DNA of 64,000 nt from a bacterium. Its GTDB lineage: Bacteria; Campylobacterota; Campylobacteria; Campylobacterales; Sulfurimonadaceae. Of the stretch, positions 11,992 to 38,376 are shown in pieces (the stretch's first letter is position 1; each line of letters begins with the position of its first letter). The stretch is from positions 31,073 through 95,072 of the forward strand of contig JAHJJX010000030.1 of assembly GCA_018822665.1 (NCBI GenBank). The letters are read 5' to 3'. Made by a program: the position numbers and the translations under genes. The notes beneath the pieces were generated by a model. That model searched no databases. It worked only from the letters and a program-made list of their open reading frames with translations, and had not been told where the DNA came from.

Positions 11992-12051
11992 ATTTGTCCT
12001 TCGTAGAATCTTAATAAATTTTTGGAATTATACAACATAATTATGAATGGG

Positions 12052-12057
12052 TATAAT
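12052..12057 (+). promoter_or_regulatory. -10 box TATAAT placed 7 nt before the ATG (leaderless-type)
   Basis: GGTATAATTGCCCTTATGAAA, identical at 19 of 21 positions to the element at 10401-10421. Confidence 0.45.
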
Positions 12058-12064
12058 TGCCCTT

Positions 12065-12952: not shown

Positions 12953-13008
12953 CTTTAGTTTAAAACCATTATGATATAATCATTTCCTATTTTTTAAAAG
13001 GTAAAATT

Positions 13009-14280: not shown

Positions 14281-14282
14281 GC

Positions 14283-14687
14283 ATGGCTACAAGACATCAT
14301 GCCCGAATGGCGGTAGTGAGTTTGCTTTATGCTTATGACTTGGGAAACGGAAACATTGCAGAGCATACAGATGAAATTTTAGAAGAGAAAAAAATCCGCA
14401 ATAAGCAAAAGGATTTTGCACTTGCCCTTTTTGACGGTGTTATGAAAAATTTGGAGCCTGTGGATAAAGCGATTATAGAACATTTAAAAGAGTGGGATTT
14501 TGAGCGACTAGGAAGCATTGAGAGAGCTACGCTCAGACTCGCGTGTTATGAGATACTTTTTGGCGAACTTGATTCCGCTGTTGTTATCAATGAAGCGGTT
14601 GAGATTACAAAAGCATTCGGAACAGAGCAATCCCCAAAATTCATTAACGGTGTTTTAGACGCAATATCAAGAGACAAACAAATATAA
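14283..14687 (+). CDS. nusB: Transcription antitermination factor NusB
   Basis: RHHARMAVVSLLYAYD...INEAVEITKAFG...KFINGVLD. The ribH-nusB order is conserved. Confidence 0.9.
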   Translation: MATRHHARMAVVSLLYAYDLGNGNIAEHTDEILEEKKIRNKQKDFALALFDGVMKNLEPVDKAIIEHLKEWDFERLGSIERATLRLACYEILFGELDSAVVINEAVEITKAFGTEQSPKFINGVLDAISRDKQI

Positions 14688-14690
14688 AGT

Positions 14691-17102
14691 ATGAAAAAAA
14701 TTGCTTTATTAGTTTTGTTTTTTACTACTATCCTTTTTGGTGCAAATGAGTGTATCTCTTGCCATAAAGGGATAGAAGATATCAGAGATAAAAACTCTGA
14801 TATGATGAAGGCAATACTAAGAGTGGCAGACAAAGCCGGGCACATCGGTAACGATTGTATCGTTTGTCATGGCGGAACTCCTGAGAGTAAAAACAAAGAC
14901 AAAGCGCATTCGGGAACAGTCAAATATTTTAAAACAAACAAAGGTCCAAAAGAATTTTACCCGGCACCCGGCAGCACTTGGATTAACCAAAATACATGCG
15001 GCACGTGCCATGAAAATCAAATCTCCTCTCAGATGAATTCTTTAATGATGACCGAACAGGGTAAGATTCAAGGCGCACTTTGGAGTTTTGGAGCAATAAA
15101 CGGTTATCAGCATGACGTGGGTACCTACGTTACACAAAATCCGGAAGATGCACATAAAAGACTTGGAACGGAGGCATATAGAAATTATATGCAAAAACTC
15201 TCTTCTATGGAACCTCAGGCTTTTCCTTCTCAAATGAGAGAGCTTCCCGCTGCTCCGAGTGCAGACGAAGTACAAAAAGACCCATCCCTTGCAGTATATA
15301 CCTATCTTCGCCAAGAATGCCTTCGATGTCATACAGGTTCTAAAGGGAGACAGGTTCGCGGCGATTACAGGGGAATAGGCTGTGCTTCTTGTCATATCCC
15401 TTACTCCAATGAAGGCTATTATGAGGGTAAAGATAAAAGCATAAATAAAAAAAATCCCGGACATCTCTTAGTACACTCCATCCAGTCCTCCCGTGATGTA
15501 AAAGTAAAAGTACATAAAGTCGAATACTCCGGAGTTCCGGTTGAAACATGTTCCACATGCCATAACCGCGGAAAAAGAATAGGTGTTTCGTACCAAGGTT
15601 TGATGGAGAGTGCGTACAGTTCAACTTTTGATGAAAGCGGAAATGAACAGCCAAAACTTCATACAAAAAGATATATGCATATGCAAGAAGATATTCACTT
15701 CCAAAAAGGGATGCTGTGTCAGGATTGTCACACATCCAACGATTTGCATGGGGATGGATTTTTAGGCGGGGCGAATGCCGCTGCCGTTGAGGTGGAATGT
15801 CAGGATTGCCATGGAACTACAAAAGCGTATCCTTGGGAATTGCCGCTTGGATATTCGGATGAGTTTAGCACACAGCACGCAAGGGGTGAAGGCAGAGGTA
15901 CCACTCAAACAATGGCTGAGTATTTGAAGCAGGGAAGTTTTAATGAGCCTCGGGATGGTTACCTTTTGACGGCTCGCGGAAATCCTCTTGTACATGCGGT
16001 AAAAGAGGGCGATAAAATTATAGTGCATTTGGCAAGCGGAAAAGACATAGAACTCACACCGCTTAAAAAATTAAAAGAGCAGGAAAAACTTTCCAAAAAA
16101 GCTTTGCTTGCAATGGATACAATTTCCGCGCATACCGATAATATGGAATGTTATACATGTCACGCAACTTGGGCTCCCCAGTGTTATGGCTGTCATGTGA
16201 AAATTGATTATTCGCAGGGAAAACAAAATCCGGATTATTTAGCAGCCTCGCATGATCAGGATATTCATGGAAAAACAGGCGGGATGAAAGATTTGAAAAA
16301 ATATCTTGTAGATGGGAAAGTTACCGAGACGAGAAGTTTTTTAAGATGGGAAGACCCGCCGCTTTCACAAAACGGAGAAGGAAGAATCTCTCCGACCGTG
16401 CCGGGATGCCAAACAACCATAACTGTTATAGGAAAAGACGGAAAAGCTTTGCTTCAGAATCATATTTATAAGATTCCAAATGTTGAAGGGGCAGGGGATG
16501 AAGGTCAAAATGCTATTGATATGGCACCGATTCAACCGCATACGATTTCAAAAGAATCAAGAAGTTGCGAGAGTTGTCACACCTCCCCCAAAGCTATGGG
16601 AATGGGAATCGGAGGAACAAAAAGCAGTGTGAAAGACCCATCTCTTACGACGATTACAGATATTATGAGTGCAGAGGGGAAAATATTGCCGACGATTGTC
16701 GATGAGCAGATTCCCGCAATCCTCAATCTTAAATATGATTATTCCAGATTTTTAGACGAAAACGGCACACAGCTTCAAACACTCGGGCATCACTGGACAC
16801 TTTCTGCTCCGCTGAGCAAAGAGCAAAGAGACAAGTTAGACCGTGAGGGCATGTGTATCTCTTGTCATCAAGATATACCAAAAGGAAATTTGGCGGTATC
16901 TGCAATGACACACATAGCAAAAATGGCAGAAATTACGATAGATAAAAAAATGCACGCAGAAATTTTGAATAAAACATTAAATATTGCGGCTTGGGTTCAA
17001 GTTTTAGGTGGAATTTTTGTTGGAATGCTTATGATGCTGGGAATATATCATGTATTTTTTAGAAAAAAAGAAATAAATCCGAAAAATGAAGGGTGGAAAT
17101 AG
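14691..17102 (+). CDS. Membrane-anchored multiheme c-type cytochrome (12 CxxCH)
   Basis: Signal peptide, then 12 CxxCH motifs: CISCH, CIVCH, CGTCH, CLRCH, CASCH, CSTCH, CQDCH x2, CYTCH, CYGCH, CESCH, CISCH. A C-terminal TM helix reads WVQVLGGIFVGMLMMLGIYHVFF. Confidence 0.8.
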   Translation: MKKIALLVLFFTTILFGANECISCHKGIEDIRDKNSDMMKAILRVADKAGHIGNDCIVCHGGTPESKNKDKAHSGTVKYFKTNKGPKEFYPAPGSTWINQNTCGTCHENQISSQMNSLMMTEQGKIQGALWSFGAINGYQHDVGTYVTQNPEDAHKRLGTEAYRNYMQKLSSMEPQAFPSQMRELPAAPSADEVQKDPSLAVYTYLRQECLRCHTGSKGRQVRGDYRGIGCASCHIPYSNEGYYEGKDKSINKKNPGHLLVHSIQSSRDVKVKVHKVEYSGVPVETCSTCHNRGKRIGVSYQGLMESAYSSTFDESGNEQPKLHTKRYMHMQEDIHFQKGMLCQDCHTSNDLHGDGFLGGANAAAVEVECQDCHGTTKAYPWELPLGYSDEFSTQHARGEGRGTTQTMAEYLKQGSFNEPRDGYLLTARGNPLVHAVKEGDKIIVHLASGKDIELTPLKKLKEQEKLSKKALLAMDTISAHTDNMECYTCHATWAPQCYGCHVKIDYSQGKQNPDYLAASHDQDIHGKTGGMKDLKKYLVDGKVTETRSFLRWEDPPLSQNGEGRISPTVPGCQTTITVIGKDGKALLQNHIYKIPNVEGAGDEGQNAIDMAPIQPHTISKESRSCESCHTSPKAMGMGIGGTKSSVKDPSLTTITDIMSAEGKILPTIVDEQIPAILNLKYDYSRFLDENGTQLQTLGHHWTLSAPLSKEQRDKLDREGMCISCHQDIPKGNLAVSAMTHIAKMAEITIDKKMHAEILNKTLNIAAWVQVLGGIFVGMLMMLGIYHVFFRKKEINPKNEGWK
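15551..15562 (+). repeat. Copy of TTCCACATGCCA
   Basis: Exact 12-mer inside the cytochrome CDS, read as (C)-S-T-C-H, so it overlaps a heme motif. Confidence 0.9.
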
Positions 17103-21785: not shown

Positions 21786-22328
21786 TTAATAGAGTCCAAA
21801 TCTTGCATCGTTTCTTTTGTAAAGAACACGAGTTTTGCCTTCGTTATCTATAAATATGTCAAAGAGTTTTGTACTGTCTTTAAGTTCTTGAAGTACATCT
21901 TCCACTTCACGCGGTTTGTAAAGTGATAATTCAACAGGTACGATTTCATCTTCTAAAGCTTCTTGTGCTTCACTTAGGTTAATTCCGCCGTTTGTTTCAT
22001 GTTTAATCTCATTGAGACCGATTTTCTGGTGTTGCGTACCTCTGTCGTGACTACGGCGCATAGCTTTTTGAGCTCTTGCAATTGCCAAATCAATTGCAAC
22101 ATATAAATCTTCATCACTTTGTTTGATGATTATTGAATTTTTATGAGAAAGATGGATAGCAAACTCAACCATCATAAATTCTTTAGTTTTTTTAGTCTGA
22201 GCAGTTGCTACAACACCGATAGAGATAATATCCATATTGTATTTGCTAAGTGTTTCAATAGATGTAGTCATGTGTTCTTTAATAGCATCAGTTAAGTCTA
22301 CATGTCTTCCTGTGAGGGAGATATTCAT
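21786..22328 (-). CDS. hpf: Long ribosome hibernation-promoting factor
   Basis: N-terminal HPF fold (MNISLTGRHVDLTDAIKEH...DLYVAIDLAIARAQKAMRR) plus a C-terminal dimerisation domain (KPREVEDVLQEL...FIDNEGKTRVLYKRNDARFGLY). Confidence 0.85.
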   Translation of the reverse strand: MNISLTGRHVDLTDAIKEHMTTSIETLSKYNMDIISIGVVATAQTKKTKEFMMVEFAIHLSHKNSIIIKQSDEDLYVAIDLAIARAQKAMRRSHDRGTQHQKIGLNEIKHETNGGINLSEAQEALEDEIVPVELSLYKPREVEDVLQELKDSTKLFDIFIDNEGKTRVLYKRNDARFGLY

Positions 22329-22391
22329 AAAAAGTCCTTTTAATATTTTAATTCAGATTATATCATTAAAAAGTTTAGAAAATTTATATTG

Positions 22392-22853
22392 CTATAATTT
22401 TTGAATGCTTCTTCTAAAAAATGTTATAGGCTCGGAAGCCGCATTTGTGCTTACCGTGACATCCATTAAAACGGAGCCGCTGGATTCAGGAGTTGTGATG
22501 GTAAAATAACTGTTTGTGCAGGTGGCCGGCAGAGCCCCTGAATAAACATAGTGCATATCAATATTTATATTATAAATATCTTCAGTAAAATTAAGGTTGT
22601 CTATACAGTTGTTTTGAGAAATTTCTAAGAGAGCGTATTCCGTGGCACTTTTTGAGAGCAGTACAGCCTGTTCATAGAGATACAAGTCGGTTGTCTGTTT
22701 AGAAGTTTGTGTTGTGAGGGAGAGCGAAAGGGCCATAATAGTCGCTATAACAACAATGACGGAAATCGCCATAATAATAGCAAAACCGCCTCTTTTTCTG
22801 CTAGGATTTTTTTGAAAACGGGAATGTATTAAAATATAGTTTTTTCTTTGCAT
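22392..22853 (-). CDS. Pilin-like protein without Glu5 (MshP/PilX/GspK-like)
   Basis: A basic N-terminus followed by GGFAIIMAISVIVVIATIMALSLSL. It overlaps the upstream gene by 25 nt and is the last gene of the four-gene operon. Confidence 0.55.
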   Translation of the reverse strand: MQRKNYILIHSRFQKNPSRKRGGFAIIMAISVIVVIATIMALSLSLTTQTSKQTTDLYLYEQAVLLSKSATEYALLEISQNNCIDNLNFTEDIYNINIDMHYVYSGALPATCTNSYFTITTPESSGSVLMDVTVSTNAASEPITFFRRSIQKL

Positions 22854-23737
22854 AATGAATATTCCTCCACTAAATTACTTTTGACACATACTTGTATCTT
22901 TACAACGGAACCTATGGCACGAAACTGAAATGTGCTTACATTTTCCATGATAAGCGCATTTTTGATATTTTTATCGGTATCACTATATTTTTCACCGTTC
23001 CATGGCTGGTAGTCATAATAGAGATTGAGTGTTCCCTTGTTGTTAACTCCGGGCGTATAAACGATAGCGTATGCAGTCCAGGCGAGTTTATAATACTCAT
23101 ACACATCCACACCGCTAAAATCAACTCCTGCGATGCTTGATGAAAATTGATTCGCATTTGTTCCATACGTGATAGGGTGTATGCTGGCATTTTGGTTTGT
23201 AAGAGCGGCTCCGTCCCATCCATAACCGTTGATATCGGTTGTTCCTGCAAAATATAGAGCGGCATCGGCGATAGAACTGTTTCCATACGACAAAATGTCT
23301 ATAAGTGTATTTATTTTTGCAGTGTCGGTTTGTGGAGATGTGATATTTGCAGTTTGACCGATATCTGCGTCTAAATCTATAATTCCGCTCCAGTTTGGAA
23401 GGTATAAAAGAGTATCGGAATTTCCACGAAAACCGTCTTCATCCGCGCCAACCCATTCTAAAACGTTGTATGCGGTACCACTCGCATTTGCAAGAGGTAC
23501 AAAAGTACCAGCTGTTGTGTCTCTTGCAATAGTTGAATCTTTGATGCGGTGTTGAAGTCGGGTCGCTATAAACTCAACGGCAGCAGCGCTGTTGGATTGC
23601 AGGGTGTGATTAATATGAGAGAATATAAAGTTATTATAAGCTTGCGCTAAAAATTCAACCCCAAATTTGCCAACTATTCCAATAACAACAATGACAAACA
23701 CAAGTTCTATCATGGTAAAGGCGTTACGTATTCTCAT
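22829..23737 (-). CDS. Prepilin-type N-terminal cleavage/methylation domain protein (MshO-like minor pilin)
   Basis: MRIRNA|FTMIELVFVIVVIGIV is a class III signal peptide with Glu at +5. 302 aa. Confidence 0.65.
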   Translation of the reverse strand: MRIRNAFTMIELVFVIVVIGIVGKFGVEFLAQAYNNFIFSHINHTLQSNSAAAVEFIATRLQHRIKDSTIARDTTAGTFVPLANASGTAYNVLEWVGADEDGFRGNSDTLLYLPNWSGIIDLDADIGQTANITSPQTDTAKINTLIDILSYGNSSIADAALYFAGTTDINGYGWDGAALTNQNASIHPITYGTNANQFSSSIAGVDFSGVDVYEYYKLAWTAYAIVYTPGVNNKGTLNLYYDYQPWNGEKYSDTDKNIKNALIMENVSTFQFRAIGSVVKIQVCVKSNLVEEYSLCKEKTIF

Positions 23738-24370
23738 TTAGTAAGTCCTCTTGTTGTAATCAATTTCACCAATATTTGCACTGTAAGTTTTTAAAACGGT
23801 TATCAGGTTATCATCTTTGTCCGCAATACTCACCGTTATTTTTTTTATATTTTGACTTCCCTCAGTAGCTGCACCAAAGTCCGCATACACAACGCTAATA
23901 CTGCTTCTATAATCTTCTTTATAGCCCGCTGACGTATAAACATTTCCTCCGGAACTATCTGTCAGTATAGAAGCACTGCTCTTGATTGTATCATCTAAAT
24001 CATCTAAGTCGCCGCTATCTGAACCTAAAGTTGTTGAGGGGCGGATAGTGAGATTCTCCAAGCATCTTCTATGCAGAGGTTGGTTGACGTGGCCAAGTCT
24101 TCGTTTTGTTGTTGTGTTGCAATCGAGAGCTGTGGTAGGAACAACTTGTGATAATGCGTCCGGATTTTCTTTATCATTTTCATCCCACTGATAGGTTACT
24201 GCCTGATTAAGCTCCGCCGCGGCTGCAAAGATTGCTTCTTGAAGTAGATTTTGGTCAACTCCTTTGGCTGTAATCTGACTCATCATAGGAAGCGACATTA
24301 CCGTAATCGCTATAATTACAATGGCAAAAATAAGCTCAATCATTGAAAAAGCATATCTGCTTCTTACCAC
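23738..24370 (-). CDS. Prepilin-type N-terminal cleavage/methylation domain protein (minor pilin)
   Basis: MVRSRYA|FSMIELIFAIVIIAITV with Glu at +5. The GTG start overlaps the stop of the 1471-aa gene by 7 nt. Confidence 0.65.
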   Translation of the reverse strand: MVRSRYAFSMIELIFAIVIIAITVMSLPMMSQITAKGVDQNLLQEAIFAAAAELNQAVTYQWDENDKENPDALSQVVPTTALDCNTTTKRRLGHVNQPLHRRCLENLTIRPSTTLGSDSGDLDDLDDTIKSSASILTDSSGGNVYTSAGYKEDYRSSISVVYADFGAATEGSQNIKKITVSIADKDDNLITVLKTYSANIGEIDYNKRTY

Positions 24371-27300
24371 ATGCTTCTCCTATTTGTGATGGTTGAGCCA
24401 CCCTCTACGGTGGTTGTATTTGTTTCATGTGCTCCAGCCCATGAGCCGGCAGCATTATGAAATTCAACTTCAAATTCATTCGCAGTAGCTCCGGCATTGT
24501 ATTTATTGTAAAGGAGCCATGTTGAAGGAAAGTTTTGCATCGTTGTTTTGTACGGATATTCTTCTTCACCCACTTCATAGGTCACCGTGGTTGAATCAGG
24601 ATGGCCTCCGCTCGTGTCGGTTCCGGTCACATCTGTTCTCGATTTTGTCTGATTAACGTTTCCTGCTGTTCCGGATATAACTGTGTGGAGCGTATTTGTA
24701 AACCATCTTGAGTCATTATTGTATGCTGAAGTAGCTCCGTTTGGAAGTAAAGTTTTATCACATCCCACACCATTACAAAATGCTTCATAATAAAGGAGTG
24801 CATTGCCGCTATTTCCAACGAATGTTTGTCTTGGCGCATTTGTACGACCGTGAATAAAAGTGGCCGACAAGTCTGCAGGAGTCGCAGCGCTGGTTATAAC
24901 AAGAGCACCGTATATTGAGCTTGCGGTTAATATTACGTCGGCACCGTTGACTCTGAATGGATTTACCGGATTTATTAAAGTTCTTTGGAAATTAAATCGA
25001 AGCATCTTAGATGCATCTGCGGTATTCCACGGGATAGTAAGTGCTCCGGCCGTGAAATTTAAGTTGATTCCTTCGTCTATTTCGTCTTTTATTAAGGTTG
25101 GAGTGCCCGCCGTTGCAACGGCTATGCTGACATTTACAGGATTTTCCCAAGAGAGCGTTTTAAAATTAGAAGTTTTATTGTTGAGAGCGTTTTGTGCCTC
25201 GATAGTAACATCTAAATGTGCAGACATAGCTAAATCATTGGAAAGGTATGTAAAAGTATTTGTGTTATGGTTATTAAGGTGAACGTTTGTTAACGTAAAA
25301 TGATCAGGAATAAAAGTAGCATCTACACTCCCGCATACATAGCGCCCGCTTGCAGTACAATCTGCAGGAGTATCGCCGATATCAATATTTGTCCAAGTTG
25401 TATCCTGCATTTGAAGCGTTACTTTTCCAACGTCGCTAAAGTTTATATTTGCTCCATTTACGGCATCTCCATTTGTTATATTAAAATCTGTTCCAAAAGC
25501 AGGTGCTCCGAGCAATGTATTGTCAACAGTTACTCCGTCTGGTTGATACATGGCAGTTTTAAGTAGATTGAGTACGGTATTTGCGGTTGACACGGTATAG
25601 CCGCTACTTGGAGTAGTGTCTCCAAATCGGGCAGCAGTTAAAGGGAAATTATAGTTTACTCCTGATTTGAGGAAATTTATATTTTCTCCTGCAGGTGCCG
25701 TAATTACAAATCTGTCGGGTCGAATTGCAAAATGATCGCTCGCACTGCATATATGCCATGAAGGTGTTCCGTTTGTTTGAGTGTCGCAAGCCTCGATAGT
25801 TGCACTTAGGCAACTTGTGGAGCTGTAGAGTCGGTAGATTGTATCATTTTCAGCTGCATCATATTCATAAGTTGCACATATTTTAAAGCCGACTACTGCA
25901 TCAGAAACCGCAGATGTTACCGTAAAATCGGAAGAGGAGGGTATATGGTCTACTGTTGAAGCATCAAAAGTTATAGTATTGCTTATCGGTGTTAATAACC
26001 CGTTTGGATAGATTGCCACATCAATATTTCCGATACCCGCTTTTGTTGCATAAGCATCATTCGTACTATTTAAACTTGCAAGGGAAAGATTAAATGGCTT
26101 GTTTACAATTTTCGTGGATATTGTTCGAATACTCGGCGGTACGGGAGTTGTATCGAGTACAGTATCCCAAGCGTCAAGCGAACCTGTAATGTATACAGTT
26201 GAACTTCCTCCACATGAACCAAAACCGCTTGCATCCAAGCCTGAGCCATCATAAGTATATATCTGATTGTTGTTCAATGTAATAGAACCTACGGATGATA
26301 CCGCTCCCCTAAAGGAACTGTTGTTTGTATTTGTTCCAGCGTCAAAAGTTCCTTTAGCAAATATGTATGCCACCATGTTATACCCCGAACCGCCACCCGA
26401 TGTGGTCATAGCAAAATTACCGCCTATGAATATGTACATATCGGATGCAATACCCGTGTTATTGTTATAGTTGAAATCTAGAGTGTTATTATTTAAAATC
26501 ATATCTCCATCTATAAAAAATCTCACTTTTCCTTCAGTTCTTACGATAAGCCTAGCATTGCTAGACCATGAATCGAAGTAGTAATCTCCTTCTGTAAAAG
26601 TCAATGTTATATCTGCATCTGTTCCCGTGATAGATTTAATACTCATATATTTTCTATCTGACGTAGAGTAGGATTGCGTGGCTTGAAATCTTGTGTCTCC
26701 TACAATATTTAGATGAGGATATTCTTTTGCGGATAATGTACCGCTGATATCTGATGCTGTGCTTAATGATGATGAAACATGTACGGGGAGAGACGGTACA
26801 TCTATCGACATTACAGATACTGAACAGGCATCCAGCTGACTGGCATTTTGATAAATTTCAGTATCTGAACATTTAACACTGCCATTTATTCCATCTGCAT
26901 AAATGATATCTGCGGAGATGACAACATCACCGTTTGCCGCATTAATCATGTCCCATGTATTTAATGCGCTAGGAAAAACTCCACATTGTTCATAGTTTGG
27001 ATCTGCTACGCCATATTGAGAACATGCCCCCCAGCCGCTCTCGTCAATACTTTGGTCAAAATAAAACTTAGACAAATTTCCAATCTCTATATCCCCGTAG
27101 GATGAAATAGCGCCTGTAAAGTATGTAGGCGAACCAAAGTCTACGGAACCCTCCACGTAGACTGTCGCGTTGAAAGTTGTGCCTCCCCCTCCGGTTACAA
27201 GGCTTCCTTGCACAAAAAGAACAAAATTAGCAGCCGGCAAGGATGTGTCATAACTGCCATTTACTCCTGTCGTATTAATACCAGGATTGTTTCCAGGAGT

Positions 27301-28779
27301 AAAATCACCGTTTATATACATATTAATCAGTTGATTACTATCGTAAGCTCGGATTGAACTTACATTGGTTGAACCGGGGATGGTAAAAGAAGTTGTATAG
27401 TAATTACCTGAATAAAGAACAATTGTACTCGTTGATGATGCCAGTATAGAGTTTGCTTTAAAAAGTATTCTTTTTCCAGGTGTATAGGGCTTAAAAGTTA
27501 TAGAAGCTGTTTCATCGAGTTGAAGGGTGCCGATATCTACATAATCTGCAATGATTTCAACATTCGATGAACCTGTTGCGGTCGATGATTGGTTGAGAGT
27601 GTTTATCTGTACATATTGAGCCTTGAGCGCAACATTAGTGCCCGCTCTTCCCACTCTGAGTGTTTGCATTTTAATGGTTTGCGATGCTTCAAAATCTATG
27701 TTTGTGTTTCCGGGAAGAATGAGTGAGTTGATTTTAATATTTTTTGGAATAGTTGATGTTGTAAAAGAGTTGCCCGTACCATCACTTTGTATCCCAATAG
27801 TGCCTATTTCCAAGTTGTAAGGTTCAGGAGTGGAAAATGTTACATTATTGTTTATCGTAAGATTAAGTGTATTAAGTTTTTGCAGAGCAGAAAAGCTAAG
27901 ATTAAGACCTGTGATGCCGTTGTTGGACATATTGATTGTATTGTACTCTGTTAAAGTAAAGGTTTTCGATGCACTGAGTGATACATCGGAGCTGGCGAGT
28001 GGTGCCGGATTGTTTGTGATTGTTGCGGTATCGGGCACGTTGGTGTAGAGAACGTTTAATTGTTCTCCATAATTTCCTGTCGATGTGGCAATTCCTCCAT
28101 CACAGCTAAGTTCTTGATATACACTCCAAATAATGCTGCCTGTATTTAAAGAACAATCAGGGGTATTAAACAGCGCAGCTCCCGCTCCGGATTTTTGATG
28201 AATATTACTAGGGTTGCTTCTCGTTTGCAGCACATCTTCAAATGTTCCACAAAAAGCTGTTGTTGCAAGTGCTTCTTCTACCGGAATGATTTCATCTGCT
28301 ACGACAGCAGGCGTAGAACCTCCAGATGAAGCAGTAAATGAATAGGTGAGCGCATAACGCATGTAATCGTTAGTTTTTTTGTCTATATGAATATAATATG
28401 TTTGATTGGCAGTGAGTGTAAATGTAAAAGGACCATGCGTGTAACTAGAGCCGCCGCTGCTGATTATGTCATTTCCTCCACAACTGCTTCCAACGTAAAA
28501 TTTTACTTGCATTTGACTGCTTGTTCCACCCCATTGATCTCTATTTCCTTCAGAAATTGTCAGTGCTCCACCAACGGTAGGGGTAAATTTTAAGTAAATA
28601 TTTGTACCCAATGCACTGTATCCGCTCGTATAATAATTAGTAGTTTCATCTAATGTAGCAGAAACACCGTCTAAAGTACTTACTGAGTGTAGGGTGGCAC
28701 AGGAATTTGGATTGGTTGCGGTTTCTGCATAAGCCAAAGATGAGATTAGCATTATCAACAAAAGTAAAAAGGTTTTCAT
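24364..28779 (-). CDS. Giant secreted MshQ-like pilus-associated protein (1471 aa)
   Basis: Signal peptide MKTFLLLLIMLISSLAYA and a strong AAGGAGG RBS. The protein is Thr/Ser/Asn/Gly-rich with a beta-rich repeat character. The C-terminal third carries FAIRPDRF / ATFIPDHF / IHGRTNAPRQ and ends in ...RRSMW, which recalls the MshQ C-terminal region (DUF6701-type) as I remember it. Confidence 0.6.
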   Translation of the reverse strand: MKTFLLLLIMLISSLAYAETATNPNSCATLHSVSTLDGVSATLDETTNYYTSGYSALGTNIYLKFTPTVGGALTISEGNRDQWGGTSSQMQVKFYVGSSCGGNDIISSGGSSYTHGPFTFTLTANQTYYIHIDKKTNDYMRYALTYSFTASSGGSTPAVVADEIIPVEEALATTAFCGTFEDVLQTRSNPSNIHQKSGAGAALFNTPDCSLNTGSIIWSVYQELSCDGGIATSTGNYGEQLNVLYTNVPDTATITNNPAPLASSDVSLSASKTFTLTEYNTINMSNNGITGLNLSFSALQKLNTLNLTINNNVTFSTPEPYNLEIGTIGIQSDGTGNSFTTSTIPKNIKINSLILPGNTNIDFEASQTIKMQTLRVGRAGTNVALKAQYVQINTLNQSSTATGSSNVEIIADYVDIGTLQLDETASITFKPYTPGKRILFKANSILASSTSTIVLYSGNYYTTSFTIPGSTNVSSIRAYDSNQLINMYINGDFTPGNNPGINTTGVNGSYDTSLPAANFVLFVQGSLVTGGGGTTFNATVYVEGSVDFGSPTYFTGAISSYGDIEIGNLSKFYFDQSIDESGWGACSQYGVADPNYEQCGVFPSALNTWDMINAANGDVVISADIIYADGINGSVKCSDTEIYQNASQLDACSVSVMSIDVPSLPVHVSSSLSTASDISGTLSAKEYPHLNIVGDTRFQATQSYSTSDRKYMSIKSITGTDADITLTFTEGDYYFDSWSSNARLIVRTEGKVRFFIDGDMILNNNTLDFNYNNNTGIASDMYIFIGGNFAMTTSGGGSGYNMVAYIFAKGTFDAGTNTNNSSFRGAVSSVGSITLNNNQIYTYDGSGLDASGFGSCGGSSTVYITGSLDAWDTVLDTTPVPPSIRTISTKIVNKPFNLSLASLNSTNDAYATKAGIGNIDVAIYPNGLLTPISNTITFDASTVDHIPSSSDFTVTSAVSDAVVGFKICATYEYDAAENDTIYRLYSSTSCLSATIEACDTQTNGTPSWHICSASDHFAIRPDRFVITAPAGENINFLKSGVNYNFPLTAARFGDTTPSSGYTVSTANTVLNLLKTAMYQPDGVTVDNTLLGAPAFGTDFNITNGDAVNGANINFSDVGKVTLQMQDTTWTNIDIGDTPADCTASGRYVCGSVDATFIPDHFTLTNVHLNNHNTNTFTYLSNDLAMSAHLDVTIEAQNALNNKTSNFKTLSWENPVNVSIAVATAGTPTLIKDEIDEGINLNFTAGALTIPWNTADASKMLRFNFQRTLINPVNPFRVNGADVILTASSIYGALVITSAATPADLSATFIHGRTNAPRQTFVGNSGNALLYYEAFCNGVGCDKTLLPNGATSAYNNDSRWFTNTLHTVISGTAGNVNQTKSRTDVTGTDTSGGHPDSTTVTYEVGEEEYPYKTTMQNFPSTWLLYNKYNAGATANEFEVEFHNAAGSWAGAHETNTTTVEGGSTITNRRSMW

Positions 28780-28851
28780 AACAGCCTCCTTTGAAGCAAA
28801 AAAATGAGCACAAAAAAAGAGGGCTCAACGGCGAGAACTACTATATATTTA

Positions 28852-28857
28852 ATTATA
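28852..28857 (-). promoter_or_regulatory. -10 box (TATAAT on minus strand) for the giant-protein/pilin operon
   Basis: The minus strand reads GGTAGTATAATTAAAT about 70 nt upstream of the ATG at 28779. Confidence 0.4.
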
Positions 28858-28914: not shown

Positions 28915-28942
28915 TTTTCCGCATGCAATGGCATGTGGAAAA
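28915..28942. repeat. Inverted pair of motif copies forming a 12-bp hairpin
   Basis: TTTTCCGCATGC-aatg-GCATGTGGAAAA forms 12 bp with one G.U pair. It lies 8 nt past the fliW stop and upstream of the giant-protein promoter. Confidence 0.8.
28929..28940 (-). repeat. Copy of TTCCACATGCCA (TGGCATGTGGAA on + strand)
   Basis: Exact 12-mer, intergenic. It abuts the 2-mismatch inverted copy TTCCgCATGCaA at 28917-28928. Confidence 0.9.
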
Positions 28943-28949
28943 ATTGAAG

Positions 28950-29330
28950 TTATTTCTGTAAAAAAGTAGATATTTTTTCAGCAACACCATATTTGGACGA
29001 TTCAGTCAAAATAATTTGTGCTGCTTTTTTTGTGTCGGTATTAAACACCAAAGGACCTATAAAGTTAACAACAGATTCCTCTATAGGTGTTTGAATAAGA
29101 ACTATATTTAAAATGAGAAGATTTGAATCTTTGTCAACACTCAGCAGTTCTTGAAAATTTTGCGGAACTTCAAAGTCATACTCTCTTAAAACAAAAGGGT
29201 TTATTAGAGTAAAAGAGACATGTCTGTCGCTAAGCGCTTGCATCTTCATAAAGATATCATCTATCTTTTGCAACTCAACTTGTTTTATATCTTCAAAGCC
29301 TAAAAGAGGAACACTTATATCAAATATCAT
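28950..29330 (-). CDS. fliW: Flagellar assembly factor FliW
   Basis: MIFDISVPLLGFEDIKQVELQKIDD...SFTLINPF...YDFEVP... is the typical FliW sequence. The ATG at 29330 is preferred over 29375. Confidence 0.8.
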   Translation of the reverse strand: MIFDISVPLLGFEDIKQVELQKIDDIFMKMQALSDRHVSFTLINPFVLREYDFEVPQNFQELLSVDKDSNLLILNIVLIQTPIEESVVNFIGPLVFNTDTKKAAQIILTESSKYGVAEKISTFLQK

Positions 29331-29453
29331 AAAAAACCTTTTTATATTTTCGTCAATTGTATCACTTTTAAGCATAAAATATTCCTACTTTAAAGAGATA
29401 TATAACTCTTTTGGATAAAATAACAGCCTATCTATAATTAGGAATAAAACAAT

Positions 29454-32772: not shown

Positions 32773-33150
32773 TTAAACGATAACCATTGCTATTTTCTTT
32801 AGTAAATCATCATTTCGTATCGGCTTCATTAAAAATCCATTTGCACCAAACTCCAGCGCTTCACTTTTTTTTGTTTCGTCCGTTGTTAACACTATGATAG
32901 GCAGCTGACGAAGATTAAAATCAGCACGAACCACCTTAAGCATCTCAATTCCCCCCATTACAGGCATAATAATATCAAGTAAAATCAAGTCGATATCACT
33001 TCTATTTTTTAATATACCCACAGCGTCAGAGCCATTTTTCGCTTCTATAACTTCTATAACTTTTCCGCTTTTATTAAGCATAGACTTTAATAATTTTAAG
33101 TTAATCAAATCATCATCAACCGCAAGTACTACCAAATTATCTCTCATCAT
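32773..33150 (-). CDS. Single-domain response regulator (CheY-like receiver)
   Basis: VLAVDDD...ILLDIIMP...LTT...MKP are the receiver signature residues. 125 aa. Confidence 0.85.
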   Translation of the reverse strand: MMRDNLVVLAVDDDLINLKLLKSMLNKSGKVIEVIEAKNGSDAVGILKNRSDIDLILLDIIMPVMGGIEMLKVVRADFNLRQLPIIVLTTDETKKSEALEFGANGFLMKPIRNDDLLKKIAMVIV

Positions 33151-33159
33151 ATTTTACCT

Positions 33160-36100
33160 TTAAATAAATTTTTCAAATATCAGTCTTAATAAATCTTTGT
33201 TTACAACATTTTTTATAATTTCATGGACGCACACAGCATCTTCTTGATTTTCAGGTGTCGATGGGTCTGTGATAAGTACTAAATAGGTAGTCAAAGAGGA
33301 AGAAACATTTTTTTCCTTAATGGCTGAAGAAAAATGTACCAAGTCTAAACCATCATACTCTTTATCAATAAGTACAAGCTTATATATTGATTCTTTTGTC
33401 AATTCCTCCAGTTCATTCACATCATTTGCAACTTCATAAGTGTAGCCTAAAGATTCTAAGATTTGAATGTAAAGTTTAGCTTCAAAATGACTTTTTTTAG
33501 CTAAGAGGATATCTGCCTTATAGCTCGCTTTTTGAGGAGTTTCTTGTTGTGTAATTATCTCTTGAGGTAGCGTTTCTTCTTCAGCATTATCTTCTATAAC
33601 AGCTTCTTCATGAAGAGTTTCAGGAATCTCTTTATCTTCTACCGGATCTACGTTTTTTATTTCCTCATTCTTTGAGAGTTCTATATTTGCAGAGATGTCT
33701 TCATTTTTAGATGCTTGTGTTTGTAATATTGACGCATCTTGCGGATTCTCTTGAGTATTTTCAATTTCGGCAATATTTTTTGGTATTACTATTTCTTCAA
33801 CTATTTTGTCTGCTAAAAAGTGATTGAGTAAAGAAATAATTTCCGAACGAACAAGTGGTTTTGTTGTGTACTCATCCAGTCCTGCACTTAAAAATCTCTC
33901 CCTGTCCCCTTTGAGCGCATTGGCTGTCAATGCTAAAATTGGAACATGCGGCTGATTATAGTCCTCTTCATATTCTAAAATTTCGGCAGTTGCTTCAACT
34001 CCATCCAAAAATGGCATTTGAATATCCATAAAAATCAAATCAAAATTACCGTCTTTTCTTTTTTGAAATGCTTCTAAGCCATTAGAAGCAACAGTAATAG
34101 TAAGCCCCAAGTCCTCAAGCGTTCTTTTAATGAGCTTTTGATTAATTATATTGTCTTCGGCGACTAAAACATTTGCATTAAATTTTGATGTATCGGCATT
34201 AAACTTTTTACGATTTACTTTTTTTACTTTTTTTGCGTTAAAGTTTTCAGCAGTGAAATTTTCTAGTGCCTGTTTTACTTTTGAAGTATTGAGTGGCTCA
34301 TAAATAGTTTTAAAAATATTGATATTTAATGAGTCGATTTTTTTCATATAATAAGATTTTGTTAAGAGAACAAGAGCCTGAGGAAGTTTCCCGTATGTAA
34401 CAAGCATGTCTTCAGGGGCATAGTCGTAATCTACAAATACTAAATCATAACTTACCTGTCTCTGAAGCGTTTCTAATTCATTTAAGTCCTTAAATGAAGT
34501 ATAGCTCACACCATAAAAGTGAAGGTACTCACGAAGATAAGTTTCTTGTCTTTTTATTTTATGTGATGACTCTAAAACTAAAGCATTAAGACTTGAATAG
34601 CTACCTTTTGAGCTTTCATTGAGCGTTTCAACTTCTTCAAAGTCAATAGTGAAATAGAATGTTGTACCTTCTCCTGGCTCACTGTAAAGATCTAGTTGAC
34701 CACCCATGAGTTCAATAAATCTGCTTGAAATTGTAAGCCCAAGCCCAGTACCGCCATATTTACGGGTAATAGATGTGTCGGCTTGAGAGAATGCTTCAAA
34801 TATTCTAGATTTTTGTTCACTTGTTACACCGATACCGCTGTCTTGTACTTCAAATCTAACTCTTGTAATTCCATCTTCATTGGAATCAACTTTTCTAATG
34901 TCAACATTAATTGTCCCGGAGCTGCTTGTAAATTTAACAGCATTTGAAAGAAGATTAATAATAACTTCTTTAATTTTTGTTGGGTCACCTTTAAGTGGAT
35001 GTTCAAGCTCTGGGTCGATAAAGCAACCAAGGTCAATATGTTTTTCGCTCGCTCTAACGGCATAAACATCCACGGCACTTTCAAACTCATCTATTGGATT
35101 AAAGATAATATCTTCAATTTCAAGTTTATTGCTCTCAATTTTTGATAAGTCAAGAATATTATTAATAATTTCAAGAAGGTTTTCGGAACTTTTTTCGATT
35201 ATTTCGACAAATTCATTTTGTTCTTCTTTGAGTCCTGTATCTTTAAGTAGTTCCGTAAAGCCAACGATACCGTTTAGCGGAGTACGAATTTCATGTGACA
35301 TGTTAGCAAGGAACATTGATTTCGCTTCACTCGCTTCCATCGCTGATTCTTTATCGCGTCTCGTTTGTTCAATAATTTTTTCTAATAAACTATATGCTTG
35401 CGCAGTTCCCTCGGCTGTATGTAAGTTAATATTTACACTTTCAGAATTAGCATCACTTGTATCTTCTGCAACTCTTTTTAGTACATTTTCCAAGTTTTTA
35501 ATATTTTTAGCAATTTCATTGGATAGCAAATATCCTAGAATAGCTAGAATAACTGAAACCATCCATATTGTAAAAGTTAAGATGAGAAACTTCAGAGCAT
35601 TTTCTTGTACTTCTTGGGCTCTGTTATCCATAGTTGTTAGAAGTAAATCTTCTGCTTCTGAGATAATATTTGTTTTTTCCGAAAGCATTGTAAACCAAAT
35701 ACCGGAACTTGTTTCGTACTCACCTGCGCCGGCAGATGAAATAATACTTGTTCTTTCCGCATTAATATCATCAAAAAGTTCTTTATTGTCTTCACTTTGA
35801 AAAAGTGCTTTTAGTTTTGCAACAAGCACTTTGTTTTGTAATGTGTCATAATTAATGGAATCCGCTTTAGCAATCAAAGATATCCATTTATTAAACTCAT
35901 CTTCTTCGAGTTCAGTTGAACGAGCAATAGCAAAAGAGATGAAATCTCTCTCGGCAGCAGTAAATTCTTTTGCTCTCACCATAGTAATATAGACGGATGA
36001 AAGTGCATTGATTTCTTGATCCATCTGATTACTGGTAATTTCTTCGAGCTGACGAATACCGTTGGATTGTGCTTGACCATAAACGGTTTCATAAACATCT

Positions 36101-36534
36101 TGAAAATTACTTTGATGTTTATCAACCAAGTTTCTAATTTTTTTAATTTCAGCCATAGAAGAGGAGATACTTTCTATATTTTTACATGCGTAACAATTTG
36201 CCTGACCTTGCGAATGGTCATGCAGAATAGTGTTATTTTTTGTATGGTGAAGATATGCCTCTAGTTTTTGATCTACAACTTTTCTTTGTTGCGTAAGCGA
36301 CTTGAATGTATTTGGAGATGAATTTCCAAGATAGATAACTGTCATACCTCTCTCACGAGAGATGTTACCCACTAGCTCATTGAGGTATCTGTTTTCGGAA
36401 AGCTTATCTTTAAGCAATTGAGCTGATTGATAGTTTGCGTATGAGTCATACACAAAATAACTGGTCAACGAAAATAAAATAAGTATAGGGAATAGACTTA
36501 TCAGTCTCAGTCTGTTTTTTAATCCTACTTGCAT
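33160..36534 (-). CDS. Hybrid sensor histidine kinase with periplasmic NIT-like sensor, HisKA/HATPase, one canonical and two degenerate receiver-like domains
   Basis: Order is TM, NIT-like region (ISRERGMTVIYLGNSS), TM, H-box FLANMSHEIRTPLNG, G-box GGTGLGLTIS, then canonical REC (VLVAEDN...LIFMDIQMP...TKP). Receiver-like segments lacking the full acidic pocket flank the REC. Confidence 0.8.
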   Translation of the reverse strand: MQVGLKNRLRLISLFPILILFSLTSYFVYDSYANYQSAQLLKDKLSENRYLNELVGNISRERGMTVIYLGNSSPNTFKSLTQQRKVVDQKLEAYLHHTKNNTILHDHSQGQANCYACKNIESISSSMAEIKKIRNLVDKHQSNFQDVYETVYGQAQSNGIRQLEEITSNQMDQEINALSSVYITMVRAKEFTAAERDFISFAIARSTELEEDEFNKWISLIAKADSINYDTLQNKVLVAKLKALFQSEDNKELFDDINAERTSIISSAGAGEYETSSGIWFTMLSEKTNIISEAEDLLLTTMDNRAQEVQENALKFLILTFTIWMVSVILAILGYLLSNEIAKNIKNLENVLKRVAEDTSDANSESVNINLHTAEGTAQAYSLLEKIIEQTRRDKESAMEASEAKSMFLANMSHEIRTPLNGIVGFTELLKDTGLKEEQNEFVEIIEKSSENLLEIINNILDLSKIESNKLEIEDIIFNPIDEFESAVDVYAVRASEKHIDLGCFIDPELEHPLKGDPTKIKEVIINLLSNAVKFTSSSGTINVDIRKVDSNEDGITRVRFEVQDSGIGVTSEQKSRIFEAFSQADTSITRKYGGTGLGLTISSRFIELMGGQLDLYSEPGEGTTFYFTIDFEEVETLNESSKGSYSSLNALVLESSHKIKRQETYLREYLHFYGVSYTSFKDLNELETLQRQVSYDLVFVDYDYAPEDMLVTYGKLPQALVLLTKSYYMKKIDSLNINIFKTIYEPLNTSKVKQALENFTAENFNAKKVKKVNRKKFNADTSKFNANVLVAEDNIINQKLIKRTLEDLGLTITVASNGLEAFQKRKDGNFDLIFMDIQMPFLDGVEATAEILEYEEDYNQPHVPILALTANALKGDRERFLSAGLDEYTTKPLVRSEIISLLNHFLADKIVEEIVIPKNIAEIENTQENPQDASILQTQASKNEDISANIELSKNEEIKNVDPVEDKEIPETLHEEAVIEDNAEEETLPQEIITQQETPQKASYKADILLAKKSHFEAKLYIQILESLGYTYEVANDVNELEELTKESIYKLVLIDKEYDGLDLVHFSSAIKEKNVSSSLTTYLVLITDPSTPENQEDAVCVHEIIKNVVNKDLLRLIFEKFI

Positions 36535-36543
36535 ATGTTAGCC

Positions 36544-38367
36544 TTATATTTTAGATATTCCCATTAGTTTCATACTAATGCTATTTGCAGCTGTAGCTGC
36601 TATATTTGAGTCTTCGGTGCCAATGAGAGTATTGAATTCTTGCGTGAAATCTTTAACTCTCATGTTGTCGCTCATCCCTTTTAGCTTGATTGTACTTTTT
36701 TTCCACATGCCAGAGTTATTTTCAGCGATTGCACTATGAATAGACTCAATTAAAAGAGCACTCTCGTGAACAAAATCTTCAAAAAGTTCATTGAAGCTCT
36801 CTATGGCGATACCGATTTCATTGGCTATATATTTTTTATTATAATCCATCGGAATATAGATTTCTTTTTTTGTTTCTGTGATTATATGAGCTTTAGTATT
36901 TTTTTTCTCTTCTACAGGCTCATGCACAGCCTCCTGCTCTTCATTTTTGGAATCAAGAGCTACAACCGACAGCTCTTGCGTAAGTAATATATTTTCGTCT
37001 TCTTCAGGATTTGCTTCAAGTAATAAGTCATTATCGTCTATTTCATATAAATCATCTTTTTGATTATTTAGGAACTCATCGTCAGCCAATTCAGCCATAG
37101 CTATTTTTTGGGGTACGTGAGAATCTTCAATGGTATCGTCTTTGAAATCTATATATAAGCTATCGTCATCTTCGGCGTCCTCAGACGTTTTAGCTATTTC
37201 AGCGGTTGCAGTTTCTTCTTTTTCAGAAAACATATCATCATCATCTTTAAATTCTATTTCTGAAAAATCGTCATAGTTTTCATCTTCACTCTCACTTTTT
37301 GCCACAGTTGCAGAAGCAGCGGAAACTTTATGGACTTCCTGCTCGTTGCCAATCTCTTTTCCTGAAAGTTTTCTTATGATTTTATAAAATGCATCTAGAT
37401 TTGCTTTTATTTCTTTATTGTTATCTGAAGTATTAATCGTTGAAAGTGCTTCAAATGCGTCTTCAACTCGTAAATTAGCAGCAACCCCTTTAAGCTTATG
37501 GGATAATATCTTGACATTGTTATGGTCATTATCTTTGAGCGCAGAATAGAGGTTTTCTTTAAATTCTTCAGCTTGATTTATAAAGTCTTGAATAAATTCT
37601 TCTATGAGATCTACCGGCAATCCCAACTCATCGGATGCAACTTGTGGATCAAAAACATAGCTGTCATCAAAAGTGATGTTTTCTGCGCTAGTTTCCTCTT
37701 CAAATTCTACGTGAATATCATCAAGGTCTAGTCTGAGTTCATTATCTTGAGTATCAGCGACAGGAGAAATATTGCTCAAACTGCTTTGTAGTTTTTCGGG
37801 AATATCATCAATTTTGATTTCAGAAGAAGAGTCTTCGGATATATCTTCAATAATATCTTTTTCTAAAACTTGAGGACCGGTATCGGATGCATAGGGATCA
37901 TCAATCGTAACCGTTTCTTGGAAATCATTGAAAGATGTTGTAAGTTCCGGCACATCCAATTTTGCATTATGCGAAATAGTTGTTTTGGGAACAGACTTTT
38001 CTAAAACATCTTGAGCAATTTTTTCATTTTCTTCATGTGTTAATATTTTTAAGTTAGTTAAATTGACTAGATAGGCTTTTAAAGACGGATTGTCAATGAG
38101 GTAAGCAGTGCTTATATCTATTATGCATTTATAGTTTTTATTGTTTGCATGTATGATAACTTTTGAATTTTCACTCGACTCTGCACATGTAATAAAATCT
38201 ATCCAGTGAACATGTTTAAAGTTATGAACATACCCCGGTGTTTTAACAAACAAATCAGCAAAATCGGACGATTCTTTGAGAAGCTGCGATAAGTCCTTAA
38301 AGCCTAAAGCTTCCAAGTCATGTTTGTCAATTCCTAGAAATTCTCTATTGTGGTTGTAAATTAGCAT
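36544..38367 (-). CDS. Acidic Hpt-domain phosphorelay protein (one canonical Hpt, one His-less Hpt-like repeat)
   Basis: ILSHKLKGVAANLRVEDAFEAL is a canonical Hpt helix. The C-terminal STIKLKGMSDNMRVKDFTQEF aligns to it with His replaced by Ile. The middle of the protein contains long D/E-rich tracts. Confidence 0.65.
   Translation of the reverse strand: MLIYNHNREFLGIDKHDLEALGFKDLSQLLKESSDFADLFVKTPGYVHNFKHVHWIDFITCAESSENSKVIIHANNKNYKCIIDISTAYLIDNPSLKAYLVNLTNLKILTHEENEKIAQDVLEKSVPKTTISHNAKLDVPELTTSFNDFQETVTIDDPYASDTGPQVLEKDIIEDISEDSSSEIKIDDIPEKLQSSLSNISPVADTQDNELRLDLDDIHVEFEEETSAENITFDDSYVFDPQVASDELGLPVDLIEEFIQDFINQAEEFKENLYSALKDNDHNNVKILSHKLKGVAANLRVEDAFEALSTINTSDNNKEIKANLDAFYKIIRKLSGKEIGNEQEVHKVSAASATVAKSESEDENYDDFSEIEFKDDDDMFSEKEETATAEIAKTSEDAEDDDSLYIDFKDDTIEDSHVPQKIAMAELADDEFLNNQKDDLYEIDDNDLLLEANPEEDENILLTQELSVVALDSKNEEQEAVHEPVEEKKNTKAHIITETKKEIYIPMDYNKKYIANEIGIAIESFNELFEDFVHESALLIESIHSAIAENNSGMWKKSTIKLKGMSDNMRVKDFTQEFNTLIGTEDSNIAATAANSISMKLMGISKI
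36701..36712 (+). repeat. Copy of TTCCACATGCCA
   Basis: Exact 12-mer inside the minus-strand Hpt gene. The coding strand reads G-M-W-K. Confidence 0.9.
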
Positions 38368-38376
38368 TTATTCCCC

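Follow-up and report, generated by a model that had tools for sequence, protein, structure and literature searches.

The minor-pilin trios GspI/J/K, PilI/J/K, PilV/W/X, ComGE/GF/GG and MshD/O/P have been described as equivalent three-subunit initiation complexes (2026 PNAS, PMC13533445). PilC/PilY1 is held on this complex by its last ~10 residues, which add a β-strand to the PilK-family subunit and are essential, and MshQ, encoded after mshDOP, is predicted by modelling to add its C-terminal strand to MshP (PMC13533445). Described here is a four-gene operon in a 64,000-nucleotide stretch of DNA from a member of the Sulfurimonadaceae (contig JAHJJX010000030.1; the whole stretch is called the window below), which encodes a giant secreted protein followed by three small pilin-like proteins, the products of genes 2, 3 and 4. 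We put at about 0.7 the probability that this operon encodes the tip, or initiation, module of a type IV pilus that retracts and is akin to MshDOPQ/PilVWXY1; the giant would then be a modular adhesin at the tip, fixed there through its invariant C-terminus.

The three minor-pilin-like genes are consecutive and encode proteins of 210, 302 and 153 amino acids (aa), with Glu5 present, present and absent in that order. An initial annotation of this DNA had proposed a composition of the minor-pilin or tip type, and size, order and Glu5 pattern do match the I/J/K plus PilY1/MshQ scheme (PMC13533445). Four minus-strand genes with junctions of 7, 0 and 25 nucleotides (nt), flanks of hpf and fliW, and two prepilins with Glu5 before a third pilin-like protein without it had also been reported there, and the list of open reading frames (ORFs), the annotation of the neighbouring ORFs and the protein sequences agree with it exactly.

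The mshD-O-P-Q genes of the mannose-sensitive haemagglutinin (MSHA) pilus of V. cholerae are likewise contiguous, and encode three pilin-like proteins in the order small, large, small, the last of them proposed to be of PilK type, along with a protein of more than 1000 aa bearing a Sec signal. The window giant contains the domain DUF6701, a domain ascribed to MshQ, including that of V. cholerae. Unlike in Vibrio, where the Q-like gene is last, the adhesin gene stands first in the window operon, a difference which the initial annotation had correctly given; in addition, no msh operon, secretory or structural, adjoins the module, the MshO and MshP profiles find no globular match in it, the head of the giant is built of other domains, and genes 2 and 3 have Ala rather than Gly at position -1.

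The PilV-W-X-Y1 systems of Pseudomonas and Acinetobacter and the PilI-J-K plus PilC system of Neisseria resemble the operon in joining an I/J/K cap to a large non-pilin adhesin with a variable N-terminal head. Neisseria PilC1 and PilC2 are paralogous tip adhesins in one genome, and several adhesin paralogs per genome are a feature of these systems with counterparts here in the related loci L012 and L002. Their retraction is PilT-dependent; here a linkage to pilT is seen in locus L022 only. The conserved C-terminus of the adhesin docks on the cap in the known systems (PMC13533445), and the window giant has a conserved C-terminus as well. Profile scans found no C-terminal β-propeller in the giant, and no sequence relation to PilY1 or PilC was detected; it matches no PilY1/PilC model, DUF6701 being its only Pfam family, and to judge by sequence the PilY1/PilC adhesins are an analogue of the giant rather than a family relative.

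Two further comparisons concern the architecture. The four-gene Verru_Chthon cassettes of Verrucomicrobia, known from TIGRFAM, encode a very large protein and three prepilin-type proteins, often away from pilus machinery; the match between gene 2 and cassette protein B is non-significant (E 0.11), and the window operon is not a member of that group. In Colwellia and others, non-canonical DUF3494 ice-binding proteins carry a C-terminal DUF6701 of ~500 aa on varied heads, where it has been read as a mark of the cell surface (PMC11645318). These proteins have the C-terminal DUF6701 tail in common with the giant, and differ from it in their heads.

The giant protein and its C-terminus

The giant is an acidic, Thr/Ser/Asn/Gly-rich protein with 18 Cys. 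It begins with a Sec-type signal, MKTFLLLLIMLISSLAYA|ET, whose cleavage at ...SSLAYA|ET is read from the sequence. Residues 964-1399 match Pfam DUF6701 (PF20419) with an E-value of 4e-8 (33.3 bits; gathering cut-off 27), and to the extent that this domain is the one ascribed to MshQ, the designation of the giant as MshQ-like in the initial annotation holds. DUF6701_3rd is recorded on the giant of one relative. No other Pfam or NCBIfam family was detected in the window giant at E up to 1, nor any sequence relative in the PDB. By BLAST against its relatives, the protein splits into five parts: the signal, a small domain at the N-terminus, the central module, a second and incomplete copy of it, and a C-terminal domain of ~610 aa, which is taken to be the anchor (Table 1).

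In an exhaustive search, anchor residues 861-1471 found counterparts in 902 cluster representatives (clustering at 50% identity); these proteins are 600-2070 aa long, and almost without exception the match lies at their extreme C-terminus. The first homolog search with the giant had returned only 26 proteins and understated the family because the repetitive head saturated the word index. A tblastn search of plasmids with the C-terminal domain, seeking an annotated mshQ, gave no match. The final residues of the giant are the most conserved stretch of all, with the consensus K-T-N-R-R-[S/L/T/I]-M-W-COOH: among 144 cluster representatives, W is the last residue of 140 and RxxW the ending of 130, all 66 giants from metagenomes end in NRRxxW, and R1468 and W1471 are nearly invariant in the alignment of giants. 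This near-invariant tail fits the 2026 strand-addition model for PilY1 and MshQ, since the last strand there completes the Glu5-less pilin.

The rest of the protein behaves quite differently from its end. The giants of Sulfurimonas aquatica and Sulfurimonas sp. CP093236 resemble that of the window in the anchor only (46% and 29% identity, respectively) and have unrelated heads. The central module is 35-57% identical to parts of ~25 other giants, including one of Sulfurospirillum oryzae, and has no Pfam, NCBIfam or PDB match; it was found in just one of 80 metagenome loci (the window's N-terminal module in two), so it belongs to the variable head. Complete giants show at least 10 head types, and the heads of relatives bear cadherin-like, Big_9, Calx-beta, PA14, GLEYA and CshA-type domains, which are typical of adhesins. 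In locus L012 (3286-14242), a single pilin trio is flanked by two different giants, one with a PA14/GLEYA/Calx-beta head and the other with a cadherin/Big_9 head, and Sulfurospirillum oryzae (L002, 10001-14254) has an extra, dispersed giant which ends in KRMEW and lies away from any pilin gene. A constant tail, exchangeable heads and extra giants form the pattern expected if alternative heads plug into one docking site.

The three pilin-like proteins and the proposed tip complex

The N-termini of the gene 2 product (MVRSRYA|FSMIEL) and the gene 3 product (MRIRNA|FTMIEL) are prepilin signals with Glu5, and the motif is kept in orthologs. The gene 4 product (...RKRGG|FAIIMAI) has a leader and a hydrophobic helix with Met at +5; Glu5 is absent from all eight aligned orthologs. 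Both gene 2 (17.1 bits) and gene 3 (18.2 bits) pass the cut-off of 16.3 for the NCBIfam prepilin model TIGR02532. The Pfam N_methyl model stays below its gathering score of 21.2 with the window proteins (18.2 and 17.0) and matches 31 of 31 relatives of gene 3, with a best E-value of 4.8e-7; no other Pfam family recurs among these. Weak NCBIfam matches connect gene 2 with ComGE (E 0.0014) and GspI (E 0.028), and gene 4 with GspK, along the N-terminal portion of that model (E 0.039; 3e-5 for its ortholog in L022). Gene 4 itself has no prepilin-profile match, and no Pfam family recurs among it and 34 relatives. Profile searches of the PDB with genes 2, 3 and 4 and with the giant family gave either nothing or matches along the N-terminal helix only, the latter being the case for gene 2, whose matches are to pilins. 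A profile check of the pilin-like proteins named in the initial annotation thus had a mixed outcome: genes 2 and 3 pass TIGR02532, and nothing of the MshO/MshP type is found in the globular parts.

In the AlphaFold2 (AF2) model of gene 3 (mean predicted local distance difference test score, pLDDT, of 75.6), a helix spanning residues 9-61 is followed by ~13 strands, and in that of gene 4 (pLDDT 81) a helix at 21-81 is followed by a five-strand antiparallel sheet. Both models have a pilin-like 'lollipop' architecture, and neither has a significant Foldseek match in the PDB. Gene 2 encodes two Cys and has an isoelectric point (pI) of 4.6; all four mature proteins of the operon are acidic, with pI values of 4.2-4.7. 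More than 1475 homologs of gene 3 were found (~60% identical in Sulfurimonas), and 902 of gene 4, among which a single UniRef name is 'MSHA biogenesis protein MshP' and the JGI names include PilX, PilV and PulG. The small proteins are thus pilin-like by motif and architecture, with globular parts that belong to no described minor-pilin family. By analogy, gene 2 may be placed at the position of GspI/PilV/MshD, gene 3 at that of GspJ/PilW/MshO and gene 4 at that of GspK/PilX/MshP; these roles rest on analogy because there is neither a specific minor-pilin profile match nor a significant match by Foldseek.

A working scheme can be drawn from these parts. Other parts of the genome would supply the motor, platform, prepilin peptidase, secretin and major pilin. 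The products of genes 2, 3 and 4 would be exported to the inner membrane, where the prepilin peptidase would cut the first two, and probably the third, after Ala or Gly; their N-terminal helices would then join them into a three-subunit cap equivalent to GspI-J-K, PilV-W-X or MshD-O-P, with the Glu5-less gene 4 protein at its very top. The giant, secreted via Sec to the periplasm, would dock on the cap by its conserved C-terminal domain, with TNRRSMW-COOH adding a strand to the sheet of the gene 4 protein. Docking may license polymerisation of the fibre, at whose tip the variable head would then stand as an adhesin. In this scheme, we infer the strand-addition contact, the adhesive function and the presence of a complete pilus machine in this genome.

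Distribution of the operon and identity of the fibre

The same operon, usually between fliW and hpf, is found in 10 of 10 loci from genomes or metagenome-assembled genomes (MAGs) in which the giant gene precedes the pilin genes, and the exact window giant also occurs on the MAG contig GCA_018825615.1. A giant followed by proteins of ~205, ~300 and ~150 aa, between fliW/bamD/lon and hpf/recG, is present in a Sulfuricurvum MAG, a Campylobacterales MAG and metagenome contigs, as well as, in the same order and at the same site, in the closed genomes of Sulfurimonas aquatica (CP046072) and Sulfurimonas sp. CP093236; cultured isolates, among them S. xiamenensis, S. hongkongensis, S. hydrogeniphila and several more, contribute cluster members too. 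Scanning metagenomes with a gene 3 profile yielded 80 loci totalling 724 kb, of which all 80 contain gene 2, 79 contain gene 4, 56 contain hpf and 66 encode the C-terminal domain of the giant, the remainder probably being cut by contig ends. Gene order is kept in every tabulated metagenome locus (those of at least 9 kb). Nitratifractor-type loci have another context, between lipoate genes and mfd, and add a fourth canonical pilin of ~215 aa, and another lineage adds two canonical pilins after gene 4. Public names are generic throughout ('type II secretion system protein', 'prepilin-type ... domain-containing', 'hypothetical', 'Ig-like', 'Calx-beta domain-containing', and 'GspH family' for genes 2 and 3).

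The initial annotation had called this operon an orphan, which is apt in that the window holds no machinery, but not in the sense of something peculiar to one genome: since it recurs at the fliW-hpf site, again without machinery, in dozens of relatives' genomes and 80 metagenome loci, it is no genome-specific anomaly. The genes of type IVa pili commonly lie scattered at several loci (PMC6668835), so detachment from the machinery is not unusual. The module is conserved at one chromosomal site across Sulfurimonas-like bacteria, and has never been studied there. The idea that the operon is a degraded remnant was rejected, all four ORFs being intact and conserved in hundreds of sequence clusters.

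The absence of machinery near the operon, as first reported, extends over all 64 kb by domain annotation, tblastn with Gsp proteins and a search for prepilin motifs. Annotation extended to nearly every non-overlapping ORF of 110 aa or more in the window; the two exceptions, at 13810-14687, resemble ribH and nusB. No T2SSE, T2SSF, Peptidase_A24 or Secretin domain was found among the annotated ORFs, and a six-frame regular-expression search of the whole window gave no prepilin motif beyond those of genes 2 and 3. Neither mshE, G, L or M nor a major pilin occurs in the window or in any related locus, so that the operon is not part of a single msh locus. For machinery of the Cts type, the scan covers the same T2SSE, T2SSF and secretin domains, which the window lacks.

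Which fibre the complex caps had been left open, and a partial answer comes from one relative. In the metagenome locus L022, the giant gene has a 364-aa ORF (5000-6094) just upstream, in the same orientation and separated from it by 16 nt. This ORF unmistakably encodes a retraction ATPase of the PilT/PilU family (TIGR01420, 453 bits against a cut-off of 319; Pfam T2SSE, E 8e-52), whose best PDB matches are PilT proteins (E ~1e-113). Retraction ATPases belong to type IVa and MSHA-type pili and not to type II secretion systems (T2SS). A pilT beside the operon therefore favours a retractile pilus of type IVa or MSH type over a secretion pseudopilus. As a single case among ~92 loci, it is a pointer rather than proof. 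MSH-type systems have been detected computationally in Epsilonproteobacteria (PMC6668835); MshL is annotated in Sulfurovum indicum, and in Thiovulum type IV pilus genes with mixed T4a, T4b and MSH affinities have been reported. A literature search gave no paper tying Sulfurimonas to MSHA pili.

Several observations weigh against the assignment to a retractile pilus tip. Linkage to pilT is confined to that one locus of ~92, and the 64-kb window, the part of the source genome that was read, shows no machinery. The residue at -1 in genes 2 and 3 is Ala, where Gly is usual. HHalign of the three small-protein profiles against E. coli GspG-K aligns just the N-terminal helix, and profiles of MshO, MshP, PulJ, PilW, PilX and GspK match no globular domain of the three. 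Foldseek comparisons of the gene 3 and gene 4 models with the PDB are not significant, the best pilin-related match being EpsI (probability 0.3-0.5, E ~0.7). The gene 4 model ends in a β-strand of its own (143-152), and an open donor-strand slot is not evident in the monomer. Finally, the DUF6701 match is modest, with E < 0.001 in just 2 of 22 close relatives (best 2e-11).

Among other explanations, the one that survives best has the minor pilins forming only a short stub or pseudopilus that displays the giant at the surface without a long fibre, self-contained apart from a borrowed peptidase and ATPase. Three observations would suit such a stub: within the window lineage no major pilin is ever adjacent to the operon, its four genes keep together as a conserved unit in 80 of 80 metagenome loci, and no fibre is documented for these organisms in the literature surveyed. 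It is nevertheless unlikely: some lineages add canonical pilins directly after gene 4, the pilT next to the L022 operon implies that there is a fibre to retract, and an adhesin of 1000-2000 aa would still need an outer-membrane passage of secretin size.

Less probable again is the tip of a T2SS pseudopilus, with GspI/J/K-like minor pseudopilins and the giant as secreted cargo. The public databases, which label genes 2 and 3 either 'type II secretion system protein' or 'GspH family', suggest it, as do the weak matches of gene 2 to GspI and of gene 4 to GspK, the appearance of EpsI among the best, non-significant, fold matches of gene 4, and an order and Glu5 pattern, with the Glu5-less protein last, that are those of GspI-J-K. 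T2SS minor pseudopilin genes, however, lie inside gsp operons, and no gsp genes are near the operon in any locus. Homologs of GspC/D/E/F/L/M/O are absent from the window and from 92 related loci; the E. coli proteins as tblastn queries found nothing in the window or in L001-L012, no homolog of GspD, F or O occurs in any locus, and the sole Gsp match across the 80 metagenome loci is that of the GspE query to the L022 gene, which is a PilT. GspK carries an α-domain, for which gene 4, at half the size of GspK (153 against 327 aa), has no room. The retraction ATPase beside the operon in L022 is foreign to a T2SS, an invariant extreme C-terminus like that of the giant is not known from T2SS substrates, and a T2SS is not known to have an adhesin partner.

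It is very doubtful that the operon encodes the minor pilins of a competence pilus, one of which, or the giant, would be the receptor for a repeat resembling a DNA uptake sequence (DUS). The 10-mer GGCATGTGGA does occur 17 times in the window against 0.04 expected, on both strands, inside and between genes, and the 12-mer TGGCATGTGGAA occurs 11 times. One copy of the 10-mer (28930-28939) pairs with an imperfect inverted copy (TTCCACATGCCAttGCATGCGGAA) in a terminator-like hairpin directly behind the fliW stop, between fliW and the giant gene. Minor pilins such as ComP are the DUS receptors in Neisseria, and PilT-dependent pili commonly drive DNA uptake. The 10-mer is common to the window and to the Sulfuricurvum MAG locus L003, which has nine copies in 15 kb (at 7875-7905 and seven more sites), including an inverted pair just after hpf, and other lineages with the operon have dispersed short repeats of their own: the palindrome CTTACATGTAAG in L005, AGACAGAGTA in L004 and GACTGAAGTC in L007. 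The link between the 12-mer and a DUS receptor drawn in the initial annotation nonetheless finds no support, for the operon occurs in Sulfurimonas and other loci with 0 copies of GGCATGTGGA, the four mature proteins are acidic, unlike known DNA-binding pilins, and Pfam and NCBIfam scans detected no DNA-binding domain. The competence pili of V. cholerae, Thermus and Bacillus are typically without a giant adhesin, which also speaks against this role. The type IVa pilus of V. cholerae and the Com pilus of Bacillus have been noted as lacking one (PMC13533445). It is pure speculation, and of equally slight probability, that the tip module is a sequence-specific DNA receptor and that GGCATGTGGA, CTTACATGTAAG, GACTGAAGTC and AGACAGAGTA are uptake sequences, 'dialects' that co-vary with the minor pilins; the two features do no more than co-occur in the same genomes. 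If true, this would be a DUS-like system in Campylobacterota.

That the giant is an ordinary outer-membrane adhesin and the pilin-like genes are unrelated neighbours is barely credible, for although it ends in Trp, and a C-terminal aromatic residue is typical of outer-membrane proteins, and bamD lies in the neighbourhood, N-R-R-x-M-W has two charged residues where a β-barrel targeting signal needs alternating hydrophobics, Pfam divides DUF6701 into several domains (e.g. DUF6701_3rd), and the overlaps of 7, 0 and 25 nt together with strict co-occurrence of the four genes in 80 of 80 loci speak for one functional unit.

The surroundings of the operon and the meaning of the module

The features of the operon and its surroundings are collected in Table 1. 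Genes 2, 3 and 4 each have their own GGAG, GAGG or GGAGG 7-10 nt ahead of the start, as would be expected of genuine genes whose translation is coupled. Both the -10 box and the ribosome-binding site to which the initial annotation had assigned expression of the giant gene are there; taken alone, the box is weak evidence of a promoter. TATAAT occurs 106 times in the 64-kb window, a consensus scan gave no -35 partner for this copy, and promoter-like sites in the region do not exceed chance (32 found against 26.4 +/- 5.2 expected from shuffled sequence). On the other side of the operon, the 63-nt spacer that separates gene 4 from hpf (22329-22391) has an extended -10 (TGATATAAT) and no terminator-like hairpin, and hpf may thus have its own promoter in addition to read-through from the operon.

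Table 1. Positions, in window coordinates, of the operon, its signals and domains, its flanking genes and the repeated 10-mer
Feature	Position	Strand	Remarks
Giant gene	24364-28779	minus	1471 aa, ATG start; first gene of the operon (ORF list)
Gene 2	23738-24370	minus	210 aa, GTG start; 7-nt overlap with giant gene
Gene 3	22829-23737	minus	302 aa; abuts gene 2 (0 nt)
Gene 4	22392-22853	minus	153 aa; 25-nt overlap with gene 3
Candidate -10 box TATAAT	28852-28857	minus	73 nt upstream of giant gene ATG; plausible, unproven
Ribosome-binding site AAGGAGG	28785-28791	minus	5 nt 5' of giant gene ATG; read directly
Central conserved module of giant, aa 160-590	27010-28302	minus	GGGTTFNATxYVEG motif
Partial second copy of central module, aa ~600-856	26212-26982	minus	BLAST against relatives
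C-terminal anchor domain of giant, aa 861-1471	24367-26199	minus	DUF6701-like
Extreme C-terminal motif TNRRSMW-COOH	24367-24387	minus	proposed donor β-strand
fliW	28950-29375		flank of operon, giant-gene side
hpf	21786-22328		flank of operon, gene 4 side
10-mer GGCATGTGGA sites	232, 6491, 10721, 12666, 12895, 15552, 17125, 20069, 20568		
10-mer GGCATGTGGA sites, rest	20934, 28930, 36702, 40105, 45750, 46210, 49112, 62672		

The remainder of the window holds housekeeping and respiratory genes, among them ribA, hemB, argF, trpS, der, ribH, nusB, mqnC, recG, hpf, fliW, bamD and lon, as well as uvrC, guaA, purD, lptD, pnp and genes for a P-type ATPase, a GGDEF-EAL protein and two multihaem cytochromes. 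Exact look-ups of two other window proteins, made for annotation of the flanks, gave no record. A flagellar link through fliW was considered and rejected, lon, bamD, fliW, hpf and recG being a conserved housekeeping synteny.

A cluster at 32773-38790 encodes a NIT-sensor hybrid kinase, an Hpt protein, a PAS protein and a response regulator, and lies next to lon in most related loci. The two cytochrome genes, at 2870-4060 (396 aa) and 14691-17102 (803 aa), both match the MtrC/MtrF domain II/IV model, which hints at extracellular or periplasmic electron transfer in the sulfur oxidiser from which the window comes. A 904-aa ORF after hemD (46391-49105) has only a weak match to the CusS sensor domain in Pfam and NCBIfam. 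The operon of L022 has a different context, with an integrase-family gene and a GGDEF-EAL gene (11359-13347) nearby; in the window a GGDEF-EAL gene is ~31 kb away (59570-62347). MSHA pilus activity in Vibrio is controlled by cyclic di-GMP, and these genes are a possible regulatory lead.

The module is a divergent, previously uncharacterised example of a known module type, and as such, though of ecological relevance, will not surprise a pilus specialist. As a natural and phylogenetically distant case, it lends itself to testing of the 2026 strand-addition model of PilC/PilY1/MshQ, and the NRRxMW-COOH end offers a simple sequence mark by which all the alternative tip adhesins of a genome could be picked out. 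At vents, in redoxclines and in aquifers, Sulfurimonas, Sulfuricurvum and related bacteria dominate among the sulfur oxidisers, and their attachment to sulfur, minerals, particles or hosts is poorly understood. The operon, which the databases label only 'type II secretion system protein' or 'hypothetical', is a candidate for the attachment device, with its conserved anchor and exchangeable head, and is found at one chromosomal site almost throughout the family.

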